A stretch of DNA of 33,989 nt, taken from positions 1-33,989 of IMG/VR virus record IMGVR_UViG_3300045999_010702. One strand, given 5' to 3'. The notes below the pieces were generated by a model. The model made no database searches. It saw only the letters and a list, made by a program, of their open reading frames with translations, and was not told the origin of the DNA. Below are positions 15,226 through 33,989 of this stretch, piece after piece; within the stretch, counting starts at the first letter, position 1, and every line of letters starts with the position of its first letter. The stretch comes from a virus (taxonomy: Duplodnaviria; Caudoviricetes). The translations under genes and the position numbers were made by a program.

Positions 15226-15416
15226 GCAAGGGGACTGAGTTGATGAAGACCTGCGCTGATGTGCTGGGTTTTAAAGGCCGCTTCTTTTTGCTTGCATGCG
15301 GCATTATTGGATTGTTTTTCCCTGGACTTGTGGGTTACTGCCTGTTGAAGGGCGTTGCCAAGGGATTAAAGGATGTTGATATCCAGCAGATGCTGGAGGA
15401 GCTGGCTGATGATTAG
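15222..15416 (+). CDS. Small membrane protein
   Basis: Hydrophobic segment FFLLACGIIGLFFPGLVGYCLL; ATGA overlap. Confidence 0.6.
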   Translation: MSKGTELMKTCADVLGFKGRFFLLACGIIGLFFPGLVGYCLLKGVAKGLKDVDIQQMLEELADD

Positions 15417-15437
15417 TTCTACACACTTCTCTTTCTC

Positions 15438-21585: not shown

Positions 21586-22217
21586 GCCGCGTCAGTTTGG
21601 TGCATTGCACGCCGGATGCGGAGAAGCTGATCGTGCGTATGGCGCGCGTATCCAATCCATCGAATCAGGAGAACGACGAGACAGCGCCTCGGCTGCTGCG
21701 TTACCTGATCAAGCACTCGCACTGGTCACCCTTCCAAATGGCGACAATGTGCGTGCAAATTGATACTGAGCGTGATATTGCCGCCCAGATTTTGCGGCAT
21801 TCTTCGTTTGCATTTCAAGAGTTTTCAACTCGCTATTCCAAAACTGATATAGCTGACGCGCCACATCAGCGACTACAGGATCACAAGAACCGGCAAAACA
21901 GCATCGATGAGCTTGAGCCTCAGATGCAGGAGTACTGGGCAGAGCGCACCAGTGATGTGATCGCGCGGTCATTCACCCTGTACGAGCAGATGCTCGAGGA
22001 GGGCATCGCCAAGGAGACCGCACGCCGGATTCTGCCTTTGTGTACGCCTACGACGCTATACATGTGCTCTTCACTTCGATCGTGGCTGCATTATATACAG
22101 CTCAGGTCTGGCCCAGAAACCCAGCTCGAGCACCGCGAAGTAGCTCTAGCTTGCCGCAATATCTTCGCCGAACAATTCCCCGTCATCGCGGAGGCAGCAT
22201 TCGGTGAGATGCCCTAG
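21582..22217 (+). CDS. thyX: FAD-dependent thymidylate synthase
   Basis: ARVSNP, HWSPFQ, QILRHSSFAFQEFSTRY, KETARRILP, RSWLHYIQLR and TQLEH motifs. Confidence 0.95.
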   Translation: MSRVSLVHCTPDAEKLIVRMARVSNPSNQENDETAPRLLRYLIKHSHWSPFQMATMCVQIDTERDIAAQILRHSSFAFQEFSTRYSKTDIADAPHQRLQDHKNRQNSIDELEPQMQEYWAERTSDVIARSFTLYEQMLEEGIAKETARRILPLCTPTTLYMCSSLRSWLHYIQLRSGPETQLEHREVALACRNIFAEQFPVIAEAAFGEMP

Positions 22218-22428
22218 CTGCGATCACTACGAAATGCGCGTGACGCACACTGCCAGAGACACCAGTGAGTCCATTACAAGACATCGCAAATGCTTGAAAT
22301 GCGGCTACAAAACATTCACCGTTGAAGTTGAGCTACCGCAAGGCGCTGCACAGCACAACAGAGGCGAACCCAGGATCGTTCGCCTGCCCTCTTACCGTCG
22401 CGTTACCTTTCCAGATGGCAGCCCCTAA
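22204..22428 (+). CDS. NrdR-like Zn-ribbon protein
   Basis: MRCPSC...V..T...TRHRKCLKCGYKTFTVE. Confidence 0.7.
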   Translation: MRCPSCDHYEMRVTHTARDTSESITRHRKCLKCGYKTFTVEVELPQGAAQHNRGEPRIVRLPSYRRVTFPDGSP

Positions 22429-25093: not shown

Positions 25094-26179
25094 TCAGTAG
25101 GGCCAAGTCAGCCTAGGACGTCCTGCGCGAATTCCAGTGTGAATAAATTTTTTAGGCGCGCCAAGGCCGGTGCTATAGGGCCATTCGCGCACGCACCATT
25201 CTTGCAGTTTGTAAATATCCACTCCTTCTAGGTACCAGTCAACCGCTCCTACGCCGGGCGCGTTAAACAGGTGCTCACTGCCGGAAGCGCCCCCCACCGA
25301 TTTGTTGATCGCGGGCGGCCTGAAGCCTGAAGTGATGATCACTGGTTTGCCGCCGAATGCCGAGCGCGCACGCTCAAGAAAAGCCGCTAGTTCTGCTGCT
25401 GTATCCACTTGATGCTGCGCTACAAACCGCCTTGCCTCTTGATCTAGCGCAAATTCCCCCAAGCGGATGTGCGGCGTCAACCGAGCACTAAACGGCGATT
25501 TCGGTGTCAGCTTTGCAGGATCTTGCTGAATCTCGGGTTGTTTCGGCAGACTTTCACGCCATAACGCCCCTTCGGCGCGACGCCGACGCAGTAGGCCCGC
25601 TTCAACATTGGTGCCTGGATTGCGATAAAGCTCAAGTGCAGCCGGCACCGCATTCCAATCTTGTTCGCGCAGGCGCTTGCTGATGGTTTCGAAGCCAGCC
25701 GAGCCATAGAAGCCGCTGCCGAGGTTATACGCGAAGTCGACCAGGCCAGATTGCTGCCCATCTGTCATCTGGTCCCAGTGCGGCACAGTGCGAGCAAGTT
25801 TTTCTGCGATCTGATCAACCTCGGTCCGCATAAACATATCGGCCTCGATCACGGTGATCTTGTCGCCACGCTGAACCGACCTGCCGCCGGGGTAGCGCGT
25901 GGTGCCGTAACCGATCGTGTACGGCTCCGCGCCGGACAACGGGTCAGGGTATGCGGTGAGGTGACAGCCCTCGAATTCTTTGATCAGCTTGAATGCAGCG
26001 GCATAATCGCCTTGCTTGCCGCCTTGACTCCAGGTTTTGAACCAGCCTTGGTCGCGACCGAGAATATGGGGGTTGGCCTTATTGATGGTCTCCTCAAGCT
26101 CAGCCAACGCCGCAGATTGATGCGGCAATTGCTTGTAATATTTGAACAGATCAATCAGGCGGATCTTGTTTTGCGTCAT
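25094..26179 (-). CDS. Endolysin: GH24 lysozyme + peptidase M15 domain
   Basis: IKEFEG..L.AYPD...TIGYG, FAYNLG and GLLRRRRAE, then ITSGFR...N..VGG...SEH...AVD...FIH. Confidence 0.92.
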   Translation of the reverse strand: MTQNKIRLIDLFKYYKQLPHQSAALAELEETINKANPHILGRDQGWFKTWSQGGKQGDYAAAFKLIKEFEGCHLTAYPDPLSGAEPYTIGYGTTRYPGGRSVQRGDKITVIEADMFMRTEVDQIAEKLARTVPHWDQMTDGQQSGLVDFAYNLGSGFYGSAGFETISKRLREQDWNAVPAALELYRNPGTNVEAGLLRRRRAEGALWRESLPKQPEIQQDPAKLTPKSPFSARLTPHIRLGEFALDQEARRFVAQHQVDTAAELAAFLERARSAFGGKPVIITSGFRPPAINKSVGGASGSEHLFNAPGVGAVDWYLEGVDIYKLQEWCVREWPYSTGLGAPKKFIHTGIRAGRPRLTWPY

Positions 26180-26964: not shown

Positions 26965-27072
26965 TTATTTATAGCGATCCTGCCAATCGTAGGTGTGGCA
27001 CCACTGCCAGACCATCATGCCAATGATGGCGATGGCTAGCAGTGATGTTGCAGCAGCGATGATCACGCCCAT
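26965..27072 (-). CDS. Small single-TM peptide (not in ORF track)
   Basis: MGVIIAAATSLLAIAIIGMMVWQWCHTYDWQDRYK; fills the gap exactly. Confidence 0.45.
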   Translation of the reverse strand: MGVIIAAATSLLAIAIIGMMVWQWCHTYDWQDRYK

Positions 27073-27374
27073 GGCAGACCAGGTGCAGTGGTGGGTGCAT
27101 GCTGTTGATCCAACTGCGCCTGCAGTGCGGCTTCGATTTCGTCGACTTTCTCTTCACCGAAGTGTTGCTTCACCCAGCCAACCACCAACTCTTCAGTCAG
27201 TTCGGCATAGGGAATCATGTCGCCGGGCTCGGGCTTTTCAAGGCCAATAGACCCATACGCCGAGCTGCTGTAGGTGCCATCATTGGCGCCAATCGTATAA
27301 TGCACCGTAAATACCACGCCGTCGGCGGTGTAGTGCTCCATATTGGCGACGTGCCATTCAAACGTGGTTGCCAT
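27063..27374 (-). CDS. Tail-fibre-associated protein (chaperone-like)
   Basis: TFEWHVANME...VFTVHY...IPYAELTEE.VVGWVK...GLPW, a family usually found downstream of fibres. Confidence 0.7.
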   Translation of the reverse strand: MATTFEWHVANMEHYTADGVVFTVHYTIGANDGTYSSSAYGSIGLEKPEPGDMIPYAELTEELVVGWVKQHFGEEKVDEIEAALQAQLDQQHAPTTAPGLPWA

Positions 27375-27439: not shown

Positions 27440-28294
27440 TCAAAGCACGGGCATTTCGTACTCCTTGGTTGTGCCGGCGTAGTGCTTGAAAATAATGTTT
27501 GCAGTGTTACCCGCCCAGGCTGCGATCTGCGTGATCGGAATTCCAGCTTCTAGCCAGCGACTGATTGCAGTGTGGCGAGCATCGTATGGACGATAAACGT
27601 GAGACACCAAGCCGGCTTGATGAAGTTGCACCGCACGTCGCCTAAAAAAGCTTTGAAATGCAAGCCTGTCCCAAGGGAAGACGTAATCATTCTCCTTGGG
27701 GACCTGCGCCAGAATTTCAATGCATTTCTTGTTGAGTGGCACCGAGCGGCGCTTGTTGGTTTTCGTGCTGTTCTTCAAGCCGTGGGTCAGCGTGTAATTC
27801 GAGTGAACAAGCACGCGACTGTCCTTGATGTCGTCCCATCTCATGGCACGCACTTCACCTGTGCGCATTGCGGTTTGAAGCATAAATTCGGCATATAACG
27901 CCCAATTCACGTCGCGATAAGTGAGTTTGGCCTCAAGCGCTGCAAGCAGAATTCCAACTTCTTCGCGTGGAATTACGATTACGTCTTCATCTCGCTGCGG
28001 CTTTTTCGGCATGCGGAAGCTGGCGACTGGGTTACGGGGCAGGATCGCGATGTCTTCCTGCACAGACCACCTGTAAAGACTGCGTACGTACATGGCGACG
28101 CGACGCCCTGAAAGGACTGGATGCTGCTGCAGCACCCAGGTCAAAATCTGCCGCCCCTGTTCAAAATCTTGTACAGGACAGCGGTTGAGCCACTTGGTCG
28201 TTTGCTTGTAGTCGGAAGTGAGGCTCGTTGGGCAGAGCGCGATCGAGCGTTCGGCGACGAACTGCTCCCAGGCTTCGACAAGGGTAATGGACAT
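27440..28294 (-). CDS. Tyrosine recombinase lacking an arm-binding domain
   Basis: TAMRTGE (R), STKTNK (K), YDARHT, AGNT and KHY (Y); about 284 aa from ATG 28294. Confidence 0.9.
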   Translation of the reverse strand: MSITLVEAWEQFVAERSIALCPTSLTSDYKQTTKWLNRCPVQDFEQGRQILTWVLQQHPVLSGRRVAMYVRSLYRWSVQEDIAILPRNPVASFRMPKKPQRDEDVIVIPREEVGILLAALEAKLTYRDVNWALYAEFMLQTAMRTGEVRAMRWDDIKDSRVLVHSNYTLTHGLKNSTKTNKRRSVPLNKKCIEILAQVPKENDYVFPWDRLAFQSFFRRRAVQLHQAGLVSHVYRPYDARHTAISRWLEAGIPITQIAAWAGNTANIIFKHYAGTTKEYEMPVL

Positions 28295-28316
28295 AATGCC
28301 AAAAATAAGCTTAAGC

Positions 28317-28345
28317 ATAATAGCACGCAATAAAAAGCCGGGCAA
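28317..28345 (-). promoter_or_regulatory. Promoter for the recombinase
   Basis: TTGCCC-N17-TATTAT with extended TG, overlapping the upstream terminator. Confidence 0.5.
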
Positions 28346-28355
28346 ACGGCCCGGC
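28332..28355 (-). terminator. Intrinsic terminator
   Basis: GCCGGGC-CGTTT-GCCCGGC-TTTTT. Confidence 0.75.
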
Positions 28356-28416
28356 GTAGCTGGATTCTTAATAAAGCTTGCTTATTGGCAATCCTGATAG
28401 CCAGAGGGGTCAAAGA

Positions 28417-28614
28417 CTAGTAACGAGTGCCGGTGTAGCTGCAGCTTGGGCAATGCACCCCATACTGCGGTGGCCAACTTGTAAGGCAAACTGATGGGTT
28501 GGAGTCCATCAGCTCCTGTTGGCACTCAGGGCAAGCGATCCCGTTGGGATGGGGCTGGGTGTTTAGCTGGAACATGCCCAGCGCCTGCTGATTGTGTTGA
28601 TCGAGGGTCTGCAT
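28417..28614 (-). CDS. Small Zn-ribbon protein
   Basis: MQTLDQHN...NGIACPEC...LTSWPPQ..VHCPSCSYTG. Confidence 0.7.
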   Translation of the reverse strand: MQTLDQHNQQALGMFQLNTQPHPNGIACPECQQELMDSNPSVCLTSWPPQYGVHCPSCSYTGTRY

Positions 28615-28630
28615 TAGAGAAGGGGACTCG

Positions 28631-29134
28631 TCACCGTGGCTGGTGACTCTCCATGTAGCGAAGAATTGCCTGCATTTCTTCCAGTGTGGCGTCGTTCTTA
28701 AGGAAGTTCGCCCTAGCCGAAATGACCATGACGTTGCCTTTGGTGTAGCCACCATTGGAATCAATGCGATCCAACGTCGGTGCGTTCCAGTTGTCTTTCA
28801 TCGAAACCCTGCCTTGACCGACTGTTGCTTGAAGCGGGATGCCAAGCACAGGGCACAGTTCAGGAATCACGATGTCGTCAACGGTCAAGTCGCAGTCAAG
28901 CCCTCGATCCTTGGCTCTGTTGTTTGCGTTGTACAACAGCTTTTTGCGTGGGTCAATCTTGATGTATTCCTTGTTGCGGCATTCCTTGCAACGTGCGCTG
29001 CGACGATTGCCGTCTGGACCCACGCGGTATGCGCCTGCATGCTTATCTGGCCAGAAGCTGTCAAACGGTAAAAACTGCTGACAGCCACAGCACCAGAGTT
29101 CGCTTGGATCAGGCGATTTAACTGGCGCAGGCAT
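28631..29134 (-). CDS. HNH-type (endonuclease VII-like) homing endonuclease
   Basis: CCGC..CKEC, PELCPVLGIPL and TLDRIDSNGGYTKGNVMVISARAN motifs. Confidence 0.85.
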   Translation of the reverse strand: MPAPVKSPDPSELWCCGCQQFLPFDSFWPDKHAGAYRVGPDGNRRSARCKECRNKEYIKIDPRKKLLYNANNRAKDRGLDCDLTVDDIVIPELCPVLGIPLQATVGQGRVSMKDNWNAPTLDRIDSNGGYTKGNVMVISARANFLKNDATLEEMQAILRYMESHQPR

Positions 29135-30606
29135 CAGGTGTAGACGATCATCAAGGTGCCATCCGACTTGCGATAAACGTCACCGTCTACCAATCCACCG
29201 GCTTTGGCTGCTGTGTTGTCAGCATAAGTGGGCGTGTTGGCAAAATTAAGGATGCGGGAGTTCTTGATCCGCATCGCTTCGGTAGGTGATGACGCCCCAT
29301 CAGCAGTAACGGAGAACACTAGGCGGCCTGGGTAGCTAGATCCAGCAGTCCAAGTCCCTCCATCCCTTTGTGCCTGTATCCACGCAGCATTTACATGCGT
29401 GGCATCGCCAAACATGATATAGCCGAGGTCTTCTGTTGAAGTTGGTCCATTTGTAGTTGTGCAGCAACGCAACACACCAGGACCAGTGGTACCGCTGTAT
29501 CCTTGGAGAAGGAGTGTTGTATTGCTAGACGTGGAAGACGTACCAACTAAGAGGCGCTTCGATGTATCAATGGTGACTGCTGCGCTGCCGTTTTGAATAA
29601 TGTCAAAGCCGCCAGCGTAGTTAGTTCCAATGGCGGCGTTCTGTGTGGTGGAACCACCGCGCAACTCCATGTGGCGAGTGCCGTCGCCAACACGAATAAT
29701 TGGCGCCGAAGAATTAAGGACTTCTAGTGTGGTGTTAACTGTAGAAGTGCCAATCCCTACCGCGCCTGTGTTCGAGACAACAAACGCGTCTGTATTCCAG
29801 TTGTTGTTTGATGCTCGCGTTGAAACCCTGAAGTCCCCCCCGTATCCGCTACCGCCGCCAGCACCAACAGCTCGAATACGTACGCGTGCATTTGATCCTA
29901 CAGTTGCGGTTGAATATAGGTACAAATAGTTTTCATTGCCGGTGATAGAAACGTCACCCTGAGCATCCAGAAGGGAAACAGGGCTACTAGTCCCCAGACC
30001 TAGTTTCCCGTCCGATGTGATACGGAGGCGCTCTACTTCATTTGTTTGAATAGTAAAAGGAATGCTAGACCGAGTTTGAATAGAAGCCAGAGAGCCTGTA
30101 TTGTAAAACTCGCAACCAACCCCACTATTTCCAGTCAGGCGCAATGTTGCAGTTGTGCTGCGCTGAATCTCAACACCGCTACCATTGCCAAATCCTGCAA
30201 AAGTAGTGCCAACATTAACATTCCCACTCGCATCCACAAACAACCGCCCCGTACCATTAGTCGAGATGGCTACGTTGTTTGCCGAAGGTAGATAAACGCC
30301 GTTGGTGGGGACACTGCTGCTGGTTGGGATGAACGATGCAGCCGTGCTCGTGCCAGTGGTGACGACGTTCTGGCTGCCGAAGTTGGGGCTGATCTTGGTG
30401 CCAGCAATCGCGGCGCTGCTGTCCACCATCGCATTGGTCACTAGGGACCAATCGGTGTCGTAGTTGGTGCTGCTCGCCTTCCGAAGCACTTGGTTGGCTG
30501 TGCCACCAGCAGAAATTGGGCTGCCCGTGGCGCCTTGCACGCCAGGCACCGCCAGCACGATTTGCGTATCCTGCTGGTCGATAACCGCAATTTGTACGTC
30601 AGACAT
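29134..30606 (-). CDS. Modular tail fibre protein
   Basis: Gly/Ser/Thr-rich; repeated ERLRI.S.G.(V/L)GIGT-type modules; located in the tail cluster. Confidence 0.85.
   Translation of the reverse strand: MSDVQIAVIDQQDTQIVLAVPGVQGATGSPISAGGTANQVLRKASSTNYDTDWSLVTNAMVDSSAAIAGTKISPNFGSQNVVTTGTSTAASFIPTSSSVPTNGVYLPSANNVAISTNGTGRLFVDASGNVNVGTTFAGFGNGSGVEIQRSTTATLRLTGNSGVGCEFYNTGSLASIQTRSSIPFTIQTNEVERLRITSDGKLGLGTSSPVSLLDAQGDVSITGNENYLYLYSTATVGSNARVRIRAVGAGGGSGYGGDFRVSTRASNNNWNTDAFVVSNTGAVGIGTSTVNTTLEVLNSSAPIIRVGDGTRHMELRGGSTTQNAAIGTNYAGGFDIIQNGSAAVTIDTSKRLLVGTSSTSSNTTLLLQGYSGTTGPGVLRCCTTTNGPTSTEDLGYIMFGDATHVNAAWIQAQRDGGTWTAGSSYPGRLVFSVTADGASSPTEAMRIKNSRILNFANTPTYADNTAAKAGGLVDGDVYRKSDGTLMIVYT
29307..30272 (-). 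repeat. Five in-phase TAGN-N7-NCTW sites at fibre module junctions (putative recombination cores)
   Basis: Sites at 30258-72, 29988-30002, 29745-59, 29535-49 and 29307-21; spacings of 270, 243, 210 and 228 nt. Confidence 0.6.
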
Positions 30607-31217: not shown

Positions 31218-31673
31218 TTACTCAGGTTGCTGTGGCCAAGTCACGTTCCACGGAAATCCGGTTTGCGATGGAAGGTTGCGCAATTCGGAGCGGTACTTTG
31301 CCCAGTTGATGCGGACTTGGGCGTCAAGGCCGGTATCAGAAAGCTGGGTCCAGTCGCAAGCTGCTAAGCGTGCATTGCGCTCTCGGCGAACGCCATCTGC
31401 ACGATTGTTGATGATGATCTGTTGCTCTTCCGCGGAAAGCGGCTGCACGTCCCACTGTTGGGTCCAGATGCCGTTGACTTGCTCGACTGGAAGCTGCACT
31501 ACGCGCTCGGTGCGGTAGTCGCACTCGGGCATGGGCACCTCGCGGATGCTGATGACGCCGTAGGTTTTGAGATCAGCTTTTTCCAGGTCAGCAGGGAAGC
31601 TGACGCGCGGATAACGCTCTTGAAGCTGCTGGCGCCCAATCGGCGTTTGCGGGTCAGCGAGAAAAGCCAGCAT
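31218..31673 (-). CDS. Tail fibre assembly chaperone
   Basis: VRRERNARLAACDWTQLSD...WAKYRSELRNLPSQ.GFP..V.WP..P. Confidence 0.85.
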   Translation of the reverse strand: MLAFLADPQTPIGRQQLQERYPRVSFPADLEKADLKTYGVISIREVPMPECDYRTERVVQLPVEQVNGIWTQQWDVQPLSAEEQQIIINNRADGVRRERNARLAACDWTQLSDTGLDAQVRINWAKYRSELRNLPSQTGFPWNVTWPQQPE

Positions 31674-32965
31674 TAGATGTCAGTTTTCGTTACTGTTAGT
31701 GTAACGGCGGAATCGGTAAGGGTCGATGCGGCTTCGGTAAGCGTTACCGAGCTGTCGCTAATTGATGTTGTATTAAAAAGAAGAGTCATAGACGCAGTGC
31801 TCCAGCTTGCGCTGTTGTAGTAATACGAGCCATGCGTGCCAGTCCCGGAGCCATTTAACGCCAAATGAGCAATTAAGCCATTGGGAGCAGTCGGCCCAAA
31901 AACAAAAGACGTAAATGCTGCACCTGCCAAATAAAGACTAAATGGTTGAACGGCTATTGCATAGGCCGTTTCCGAATTTGTGGTACCCAAATAACGTTGA
32001 TACTGCACTGAAAGGCTGTTGTCATATTTTACAGCATAAAAATCGTTGCGTCTTTCCGTGCCCGAAAAATAAGTACCTATATTATCTGTCGAAACGATAT
32101 ATATATTACCAGAAGAGTCTTTTGCGGCGGCGGCAACACTGTTAATTGTTCGGTTAATAATCGTAGATGTCGAATACGTGCCATTACTTGTATATTTAAT
32201 TGCGCTTAAGGCGTCATTTCCTTTGCCAAAAACAAATACATTAGAAGAAGCGTCTGTTGTGATAGCGGTTGCTGTCCAGTTTGCATCAGTTGTATGAACA
32301 CTCCGCTGGAACTGGAGAGCGCCAGATGAATTGTATTTAACTGTTAAAAAACGATCAAAAGTGCTAGGAGCATAATTTCCGCACACAACGGGATTATTGC
32401 TAGCGTCAAGAGTAATTGCCGTATAAAGCGAGCTTTGGCCTTCGTCCATTGATAAGATGTTTTGCCACTGCAGCACGCCAGAGGAATTGTATTTTGCTAT
32501 GTAAGCTTCTTCCGCGCCAAAGCTGCCGGTATAACCGGCAATGTATGTATCGCCACTTGAATTTGTTGCTATAGCATTTATGTAGGCATTTGTAATTCTT
32601 CTCTGCCATCTAATAGAGCCGGAAGAAGAGTAACTGCAGACAACAGCAAGTGTGCCGCCTCCACTTTCATTTAGTGCAATATATGAGTTTTCAGAGCTGT
32701 CCAAAGCTATGCCAACAGCAGCATAAGAGTAAAATCCGCCAGAACCCAAAGACCGCTGCCAGCTAAGATTAGCATTTTTGTCCATTTTTCCAATTAACGC
32801 ATAACCAGGACTTGTCGGATATCTGCCGCAAAAATAAATATCATTATTTGCGGTCACTGCTATGCCACTGACGTATTCATTGTTGCTTGCTGTCGAAAGA
32901 CGTGCAATCCAATAATCTTTGGTGAGTTCGCCGGTTGCGGCCAGCAGCAAGAGCTTACTAATCAT
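31673..32965 (-). CDS. Beta-propeller (SBBP-like) putative receptor-binding protein
   Basis: Repeated IA.DSS.N.YI.G...KYNSSG.LQWQR blades; ATG 32965 is coupled to the upstream TGA. Confidence 0.8.
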   Translation of the reverse strand: MISKLLLLAATGELTKDYWIARLSTASNNEYVSGIAVTANNDIYFCGRYPTSPGYALIGKMDKNANLSWQRSLGSGGFYSYAAVGIALDSSENSYIALNESGGGTLAVVCSYSSSGSIRWQRRITNAYINAIATNSSGDTYIAGYTGSFGAEEAYIAKYNSSGVLQWQNILSMDEGQSSLYTAITLDASNNPVVCGNYAPSTFDRFLTVKYNSSGALQFQRSVHTTDANWTATAITTDASSNVFVFGKGNDALSAIKYTSNGTYSTSTIINRTINSVAAAAKDSSGNIYIVSTDNIGTYFSGTERRNDFYAVKYDNSLSVQYQRYLGTTNSETAYAIAVQPFSLYLAGAAFTSFVFGPTAPNGLIAHLALNGSGTGTHGSYYYNSASWSTASMTLLFNTTSISDSSVTLTEAASTLTDSAVTLTVTKTDI

Positions 32966-33989
32966 CAGACATAACTCCCGACATAAGCACCATACAGGGT
33001 TGTGCTGATTTTCCAAAATACCAGCACATCTTTTGCGGTAAGTACGGGAGCCGCATTGCCGCCTGCCGACACCCAAGTAATTGTTGGCCACGTCACCGTA
33101 TAACTACTTCCGTTCTCAAGCCGAAGCAATACTGACTGCCCGCTCTCCAGTGCTTCGGTGAATGTAGTGTTACCACTCAATGACTTATACTGAACCGTTC
33201 CGTTTGCGGGATCAATAGCAGTACCAGTCAAGTCATAAATAGTTTCCCTGATTTCTTTAAGCGTGGTTTGACCTGTAACATCAAGCGTGCTTGATGTTGC
33301 GATTGCGCCACTAGTGTTAATTGCAGTGCTGCCTCCAATCGTACCGCTGGTAATTGCTGCACCGCTAACCTTGCCCGCAGTAGAAATAATGGCAAGTTTA
33401 CTATCAGCAATAGCAGCGCTTGAAGAGATGTCGGCGTTGACAATGCTGTTACTGAGCGCCAATTTGCTGTAAGCGACCGCTGCACCAGAAGCAATATCAG
33501 CATTGACAATACTGTTGCTTAGATTGAGCTTGCTGTAAGCAACAGCAGCGCTGCTCGCAATATCAGCATTGACAATGCTATTTGTTAGCGCCAACTTGCT
33601 GTAGGCGACGGCAGCACTAGCACCAATGTCAGCGTTTACAACGCTGCCAGTCAGCGCAAGCTTGCTATAGGCAATAGCAGCACTAACGGAAACATCGGCA
33701 TTGACGATATTTGCATTACCGCTAACAAGAACAGTGCCGCTTAGATCCGGAAAAGTAATTGTGCGAGCCGCTGAGGCGGTAGCTGCCGAGATTGTGGTGT
33801 TAAACGAACCGGTGTCGTAAACAAGACTGACAGCGTCTAGCGTGACATTTCCGGTAAAAGTGTCTCCAGCCTTGTTTGCTTTGATAGTGTTCAGCGATGC
33901 CAGCATGTCTTGGACATTGCTGCCGGTTACGCCGGAAATAGCAGTGGTTGTAATGTTCGAGGCAGTTTGCGCTGCAACCGTCGACGACA
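32965..33989 (-). CDS. Tail fibre / structural protein, 5'-partial
   Basis: The frame is open to the window edge; contains five 22-aa repeats and a C-terminal IDPANGTVQYKSL...TVTWP..W domain. Confidence 0.8.
   Translation of the reverse strand, partial: SSTVAAQTASNITTTAISGVTGSNVQDMLASLNTIKANKAGDTFTGNVTLDAVSLVYDTGSFNTTISAATASAARTITFPDLSGTVLVSGNANIVNADVSVSAAIAYSKLALTGSVVNADIGASAAVAYSKLALTNSIVNADIASSAAVAYSKLNLSNSIVNADIASGAAVAYSKLALSNSIVNADISSSAAIADSKLAIISTAGKVSGAAITSGTIGGSTAINTSGAIATSSTLDVTGQTTLKEIRETIYDLTGTAIDPANGTVQYKSLSGNTTFTEALESGQSVLLRLENGSSYTVTWPTITWVSAGGNAAPVLTAKDVLVFWKISTTLYGAYVGSYV
33394..33715 (-). repeat. Five tandem ~66-nt coding repeats
   Basis: IVNAD(I/V)xxxAA(I/V)AYSKLxL repeated five times; coordinates approximate. 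Confidence 0.8.

Follow-up and report, generated by a model that had tools for sequence, protein, structure and literature searches.

How unrelated phages come to exchange parts of their tail fibres at precise boundaries is an old question, and such boundaries are usually credited to chance or to short-homology recombination. The question is raised again by a virus record of 33,989 nucleotides (IMGVR_UViG_3300045999_010702, positions 1-33,989; Duplodnaviria, Caudoviricetes), the whole of which is called the window here. On its minus strand, a modular tail-fibre gene (30606-29134) is followed by an endonuclease VII-like gene, a Zn-ribbon gene of 65 amino acids (aa), a tyrosine recombinase gene (28294-27440) and a DUF7936 gene, and a row of short related sites runs through the fibre gene and the small genes after it. 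A preliminary description had proposed that the central spacer of each site is an address, at which the recombinase swaps fibre modules with the equivalent junction of a related phage. In our analysis, the sites are, with high confidence, real, widespread, ordered and symmetric exchange sites. The boundaries here are a defined site with a candidate enzyme, in a system present in the cultured phages S-LBS1, S-CBP3, S-CBP4 and 7B11-B. Judging from sequence comparison, we believe with a probability of about three in four that the adjacent recombinase catalyses swaps at matching spacers, in trans. The window is very likely a freshwater cyanophage, because the top cultured relative of its recombinase is that of Synechococcus phage S-LBS1 (70% identity) and the 20 metagenome runs with this stretch are all lake or freshwater.

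Exchange sites of the window

The five fibre sites of the preliminary description were found as 15-mers in codon phase 1 of the open reading frame (ORF) 30606-29134, and two further sites that it had overlooked (28629-28615 and 28419-28405) were added. The seven sites are as follows.

30250..30280, minus strand: site A, 31 bp; core 30272-30258, spacer CATCTCG; contig ends and loose ends at 30254-30283
29980..30010, minus strand: site B; core 30002-29988, spacer TCTGGGG; joints and loose ends at 30002 and 29979
29737..29767, minus strand: site C; core 29759-29745, spacer GATTGGC; joint at 29760
29527..29557, minus strand: site D (variant D2); core 29549-29535, spacer TGGTACG; loose ends at 29549
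29299..29329, minus strand: site E; core 29321-29307, spacer GTTCTCC; the match of contig X13 stops at 29321
28607..28637, minus strand: site J, intergenic; core 28629-28615, spacer CCCCTTC, degenerate left arm; loose ends at 28619 (X9, X13)
28397..28427, minus strand: site L, intergenic; core 28419-28405, spacer CTTTGAC; loose end at 28409 in X20

The fibre sites divide the protein into modules of 90, 81, 70 and 76 aa, in agreement with the proposed 70-90 aa, and sites J and L bracket the Zn-ribbon gene. Only two of the five fibre sites are a perfect TAG-N9-CTA. The shared codon phase is true but weak evidence, because TAG cannot occur in frame; 10 of the 19 TAGs in the fibre gene lie in phase 1. 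The peptides at the sites had been described as different, and they are in fact variants of a common [VL]G[IL]GT fibre repeat, of which a sixth copy (aa 130, NVGTT) has no site. The NTA codons had been called unexpected in a GC-rich genome; the fibre gene has only about 53% GC and a GC content at third codon positions (GC3) of 0.52. When the fibre gene alone was compared with a synonymous-codon null, P was 0.03 for two perfect sites, 0.007 for seven sites with at most one mismatch and 6.5e-4 for all five TAGs, the choice of statistic being post hoc. Taken alone, the five sites are modest evidence, and the comparative evidence is the strong part. Matches to the arm profile were also seen outside the array, at window positions 22207-22237 and 15406-15436, and may be chance. 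One of these stray matches lies at the thyX stop codon and has a perfect core.

Constraint on the sites at the DNA level

Both the NTA codon and ACT were present in 51 of 55 unique repeats from 30 loci picked by the recombinase protein alone, where the codon use of the same ORFs predicts about 7% of repeats. Loci picked by the fibre protein gave 25 of 28 repeats. Control fibres with the same protein repeat, scanned in 1 of 64 parts of the viral collection, gave 62 of 414 (138 viral loci), close to the expectation from their AT-rich codons. Outside the fibre, the core is found again ahead of small genes, and the previous stop codon often serves as its TAG. At 205 intergenic sites, mismatch to the class was 1-4% per position for the central 7 bases and 1-35% for the arms; the classes were set by nearest match, which favours the spacer in this comparison. 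The 15-mer of the site C class occurs in about 900 viral stretches, and 122 of its 124 unique contexts are open in the fibre frame. The DNA-level constraint that had been proposed is therefore borne out by synonymous positions fixed in 51 of 55 repeats and in few control repeats. Protein constraint alone was ruled out by the control fibres, by the intergenic sites and by the sites of a second fibre family (family 2, below), which use two codon phases.

Spacer order and arm symmetry

An arms-only site caller was run on 149 unique arrays. Thirty-one spacers had at least four contexts, a few of them overlap artefacts, and about 20 classes were clear. Site pairs followed one order in 2351 cases and broke it in 204, with 48 further same-spacer pairs and the rank fitted on the same data. 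This indicates that spacers are conserved by position, as had been predicted. The called sites are co-oriented. A spacer is repeated in 19 of the 149 arrays; uniqueness within an array is thus a rule and not absolute. The cultured siphovirus S-LBS1 has the addresses Y C D2 E J L and then the recombinase, and the cultured podovirus S-CBP4 has A B C D E F. The podoviruses S-CBP3 and 7B11-B also carry addresses from this series, so the addresses are common to siphoviruses and podoviruses. Four long arrays (L058, L064, L103, L132), all without an adjacent recombinase, restart the series (e.g. B C D E B ...) and could be chained modules or duplications.

The left arm was compared with the reverse-complemented right arm at positions -8 to -1 and their mirror, which had not been used in site selection; classes were weighted equally and flanks dereplicated. 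Intergenic family-1 sites gave r 0.80 with a peak at zero offset (next 0.51), and family-2 sites gave r 0.81 at zero offset (next best 0.22). Because the outer arm profiles mirror each other, the site is a 12-bp arm, a 7-bp spacer and a 12-bp arm, about 31 bp. This size is typical for tyrosine-recombinase cores, and the 12-7-12 layout lies within their inverted arms of 11-13 bp around an overlap of 6-8 bp. The arms of 4 bp, which the preliminary description gave as its main weakness, are thus about 12 bp long. A one-directional linker was also considered and was ruled out by the mirror-offset test.

Breakpoints and exchanged modules

The ends of 97%-identical blocks between family-1 loci fell within 12 bp of a site centre in 54 of 99 cases (random mean 9.1, maximum 16 in 300). 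An earlier pass, run with looser cut-offs before the site list was complete, had given 139 of 584 against a null of 64 and was later refined. In pairs that share the left flank only (14 coding, 14 intergenic), mismatch rises to 0.29 on the base that immediately follows the spacer. In pairs that share the right flank only (10 coding, 39 intergenic), mismatch persists to the base preceding the spacer, and the intergenic right arms also differ, up to 0.21. Spacer identity in these pairs holds by construction.

Single loci show the same boundaries. L024 is 100% identical to the window over 29556-28619, which spans the endonuclease VII-like gene and stops at the last spacer base of J. The identity of L033 begins at 29549, in site D. 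L023 shares 29760-29293 and 28632-28402 with the window around a different intervening block; its J-L cassette is 99.6% shared from J to L only, and a different recombinase follows L.

Swapped modules were also seen in lake contigs, which as assembled sequences show the presence of variants and not their rates. Single contigs in X4, X8 and X9 match the window on both flanks and carry a different module of the same length between B and C, and X1 and X2 lake contigs have the window's own B-C module. In the dominant X20 contig (depth 536), the J-L slot is occupied by 58 other bases instead of the Zn-ribbon gene. An X20 contig at depth 5 keeps that gene and departs from the window at 28409, the last spacer base of L. 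The joints listed in lake contigs are skips or replacements (14 weaker joints stand outside this list). The predictions that breakpoints fall at the sites and that swapped modules exist were thus both confirmed.

A second fibre family with the same core

Recombinase homologs at 58-67% identity (clade 2) adjoin a non-homologous DUF7483/SPRY/LamG fibre, mostly in inverted orientation. After exclusion of the selecting site, TAG-N9-CTA occurred 139 times in 109 unique loci of this family-2 fibre, against 37 and 47 at spacings 6 and 12. The family-2 spacers are ordered, and none is common with family 1. Breakpoints lay at sites in 25 of 137 cases against a null of 6.4; a first clade-2 test (5 of 24 against 2.1) was not significant and became so once more loci were added. 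The outer-arm consensus differs by family, with r 0.19-0.40 across families and 0.55-0.59 within. The recombinase follows 8 of 53 long family-2 loci; in four cases it lies 16 bases past the last site.

One phage (L429:5308-12524) has both fibre families in tandem, separated by DUF7936; it also has small cassette genes and one clade-2 recombinase, which is inverted. L499, L521 and other family-2 loci, and the L428/L434 group, have site pairs 13 bases apart with overlapping arms, which resemble empty slots with both addresses. Small cassette proteins (L004:516-863, L005:7136-7450, L010:1789-2070, L429:7598-7933) occur in both array types; three of the four share an HPITPP-type start, and a Pfam search of them gave no match. 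Other clade-2 subgroups (L426-L428, L434-L444, L453-L464) have recurring spacers around small genes in few contexts, possibly a third set.

The recombinase and neighbouring genes

The genes around the sites are as follows.

29134..30606, minus strand: modular tail-fibre gene, 490 aa, [VL]G[IL]GT repeats; PHROG 9942/18345 tail fiber, E 2e-29
28631..29134, minus strand: endonuclease VII/HNH-like gene between sites E and J; PHROG 3322/1035
28417..28614, minus strand: 65-aa Zn-ribbon-like cassette gene in the J-L slot, with the TAG of site L serving as its stop codon
28317..28355, minus strand: terminator-like hairpin with an overlapping sigma70-like promoter match, 5' of the recombinase; consensus scan only
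27440..28294, minus strand: arm-less tyrosine recombinase, 284 aa, possible start 28318; PF00589, E 6e-16
27063..27374, minus strand: DUF7936 gene, constant downstream anchor of family-1 arrays; PF25590, E 2e-37

By profile and fold, the window protein is predicted to be a tyrosine recombinase. It matches PF00589 at 59.2 bits (cut-off 27.1). Its structure model has a predicted local distance difference test (pLDDT) score of 88; an earlier fold from 11 sequences was poor (pLDDT 58). The model resembles the core-binding and catalytic domains of Tn1549 Int (Foldseek E 5e-10) and lambda Int (E 1e-8), with a template modelling (TM) score of about 0.63, and integron integrase 2a3v ranks 34 in the fold search. 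A sequence search of solved structures with the recombinase found nothing. R144, K178, Y237, R240, N263 and Y272 are invariant across 55 aligned homologs. In the catalytic R-K-H-R-H/W-Y set, placed by motif and without superposition, Y237 and N263 would occupy the two His positions. A more distant homolog (L398:4414-5268, 48%) lies inverted about 4 kb past the DUF7936 gene of a site-bearing phage.

The gene begins 840 bp past the fibre stop, close to the 1 kb of the preliminary description. That description had given the gene its own promoter and terminator, and a promoter-like and a terminator-like consensus match are found just upstream. DUF7936 follows the recombinase in 72 of 129 unique recombinase loci. 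The Pfam search of the fibre protein gave zero matches.

The endonuclease VII-like gene overlaps the fibre stop, a position where most arrays hold site F. It moves with the fibre end as a single block and is 3-8x deeper than the recombinase in X3, X4, X9 and X13. Elsewhere in the window, 25094-26179 encodes a lysin with lysozyme and peptidase M15 domains, and an AT-richer gene upstream of the fibre (31673-33091; region about 42% GC, GC3 0.39) has a weak beta-propeller repeat match.

Which enzyme acts on the sites

Among the clade-1 recombinase loci with upstream sequence, 52 of 54 have a site within 1.5 kb. TAG-N9-CTA occurred 144 times on the array side of clade 1 against 14 and 38 at spacings 6 and 12, and 65 times on the fibre side of clade 2 against 22 and 24; controls were flat in both. 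The far side of the clade-2 recombinase had a smaller excess (55 against 21 and 39). In a recombinase tree of 54 rows, array neighbourhoods separated with 2 changes, against 18 when shuffled. Two unrelated gene families, with a separate recombinase clade at the end of each, thus have one dyad core in common, and most simply the enzyme would read the dyad.

Several results weigh against this reading. Of the family-1 arrays that reach DUF7936, the recombinase comes after only 6 of the 40 selected by site and 5 of the 16 selected by fibre, and the enzyme is present in only about 15-30% of arrays. It was found in 2 of 50 further contigs, picked mostly for having no adjacent copy. There was no PF00589 gene in any of 5 near-complete site-bearing genomes, nor in S-CBP4, S-EIVl or 7B11-B. 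Downstream of the recombinase there was no site enrichment (24 against 31 and 21). Depletion of repeated spacers beside the enzyme was not significant (0 of 19 against 4 of 22, p=0.11). The tree reflects a long linkage and is not proof of co-evolution, because kin share labels. Breakpoints lay away from called sites in 45 of 99 family-1 and 112 of 137 family-2 cases, and coding family-1 sites are weakly symmetric (mirror r 0.31).

The many arrays without the enzyme have equally intact sites (arm mismatches 0.51 with and 0.46 without it). This would fit true recombination sites on which a host or other phage protein acts, the neighbouring recombinase being a passenger of the last slot. The recombinase itself is exchanged at site L, as L023 shows, and a passenger role is possible because ordinary cassette genes are also found in both families. 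Against such an enzyme, a single recombinase family ends two non-homologous arrays, and the core is unlike the consensus of the XerCD dif arms. A single host enzyme is disfavoured because the outer arms differ between families and the clades track the array type. We consider it improbable that another enzyme acts.

Homology-driven recombination, by phage single-strand annealing or host RecA, could also keep the junctions if whole modules are selected, the symmetry being incidental. Sites persist without the recombinase, many breakpoints are off-site, and the window protein set includes a RecE-like DUF3799 nuclease (Pfam profile scan). Precedents are the T-even fibre motifs and, in the accessible text, PeSL shuffling (PMC2839356). 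However, homology needs no dyad, no constant 7-base centre and no core common to about 30 spacers, and the shared core spans coding, intergenic and non-homologous contexts and different codon phases. The exchanges resolve to the spacer edge, where the adjoining arm base is already different, and codon locking is absent where this protein repeat occurs elsewhere. We therefore regard recombination by homology as an unlikely explanation. An ordinary lysogeny integrase unrelated to the fibre is very improbable. The fold is like the lambda and Tn1549 Int cores, and the 70% identical S-LBS1 homolog was annotated as a lysogeny integrase, but in the accessible text mitomycin C induction of S-LBS1 gave no evidence of integration (PMC6157547). 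The recombinase lacks an arm-binding domain, a pattern-limited scan across 185,579 species genomes turned up 3 loci, each on a short contig of a non-cyanobacterial metagenome-assembled genome, and a lysogeny role leaves the sites unexplained.

Proposed mechanism and significance

Tyrosine recombinases exchange strands across an overlap of 6-8 bp, and overlap identity is usually required. In the reading that we prefer, catalysis by the adjacent recombinase, the enzyme would bind the arms and cross over only between sites with the same spacer. It would spare its own array because the spacers within one genome mostly differ, and this difference would protect the array from self-deletion. Two phage genomes in one co-infected Synechococcus cell would be joined by a crossover at a shared address, and a second crossover, at another shared address, would separate them with the intervening modules exchanged. 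Swaps would be in frame because matching addresses share their codon phase. Since only a minority of arrays have the enzyme, action in trans would be required. The few carriers would serve all arrays in the cell, including those without the enzyme, and because carriers would act on any array in the cell, sites in non-carriers would stay intact. The module swaps may change host recognition. The address-coded swap of the preliminary description is supported, with two changes: the array also covers the small-gene cassettes after the fibre, and the enzyme is in a minority of arrays.

On a wider scale, the odds seem to us slightly in favour of a community-wide address book. It would be shared by freshwater and estuarine Synechococcus phages of different families, with at least 20 orthogonal 7-base addresses per fibre family, some in frame in the fibre. 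Dedicated recombinase clades for each fibre type would be supplied by a minority as a public good in co-infection.

If true, this would be an undescribed route for phages to trade host-recognition parts, and would add a new class to the known diversity generators, which include invertases, shufflons, integrons and diversity-generating retroelements. A family of more than 1300 protein clusters labelled 'integrase', often taken as a sign of lysogeny, would be reinterpreted. For DNA assembly, the natural multi-site cassette-exchange toolkit could yield a compact recombinase together with many orthogonal spacers of natural origin.

Comparison with known systems

Integrons likewise combine a tyrosine recombinase with an adjacent row of single-gene cassettes that sites delimit. 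The array differs in having no attI/attC pair or long attC hairpins, in its fixed addresses and in sites that also lie inside a coding gene. An integron with interchangeable attC sites and free cassette order was rejected, because the distinct spacers keep a near-fixed order. In recombinase-mediated cassette exchange with heterospecific lox or FRT sites, spacer identity picks the partner and a double crossover swaps the cassette. That exchange is artificial and usually uses two sites, whereas the array would be a natural version with many. Diversity-generating retroelements have a reverse transcriptase, and none was found among the 26 window proteins scanned, from a genome that may be incomplete; the fibre varies here by block swap.

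Motif recombination in T-even fibres was reportedly described by Tetart in 1998. In T4-type phages, PeSL cassettes are short conserved elements described as hotspots of modular shuffling (accessible text of PMC2839356). In the PeSL and T-even cases a single element or motif recurs in copies, and the text available names no dedicated recombinase, whereas the array has its own spacer at each position in a shared dyad. The Rin shufflon of bifidophages also has an arm-less tyrosine recombinase adjoining a receptor-binding gene, with crossover sites within the gene; there, copies of a single asymmetric 11-bp site serve to invert silent cassettes for the C terminus inside the same genome (accessible part of PMC6109161). 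A shufflon or invertase (Rin, Min, Gin, Cin) was rejected here, as the spacers are different, the called sites share one orientation and silent cassettes in inverted orientation were not seen. The cyanophage 'genomic isomerism' of a 2026 preprint, as far as its available text goes, is a 30-kb inversion and not this array.

Integrase A12 of S-LBS1 (MG271909), 70% identical, lies directly after a fibre whose sites are Y, C, D2, E, J and L. It was published as a lysogeny integrase in a report whose accessible text does not mention the array and records that no lysogen was found (PMC6157547). A full-text literature search, with most subscription papers and supplements outside its scope, gave no description of this array.

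The closest precedent, as far as the accessible parts of two papers show, is the pdif/xrs system of Acinetobacter plasmids, which likewise has several tyrosine-recombinase sites with different central regions flanking exchangeable genes. These plasmids recombine only at closely related central regions, and cointegration followed by resolution at a second site pair is proposed to exchange genes (PMC11705084, PMC9771954). The recombinant pairs and slot swaps of the array look like the products of such an exchange, and cointegrate intermediates were not seen. pdif/xrs modules use the host XerC/XerD heterodimer, often have inverted sites and carry whole genes on plasmids. The array has one enzyme, likely phage-encoded, symmetric arms, all-direct sites and about 20 ordered addresses, several of them in frame. 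Its symmetric arms with a TAG/CTA core, unlike the ATAA/TTAT core given in the accessible text (PMC11705084), place it outside that class. We suggest that the array would be a spacer-addressed cassette exchange whose logic is akin to that of pdif/xrs modules.

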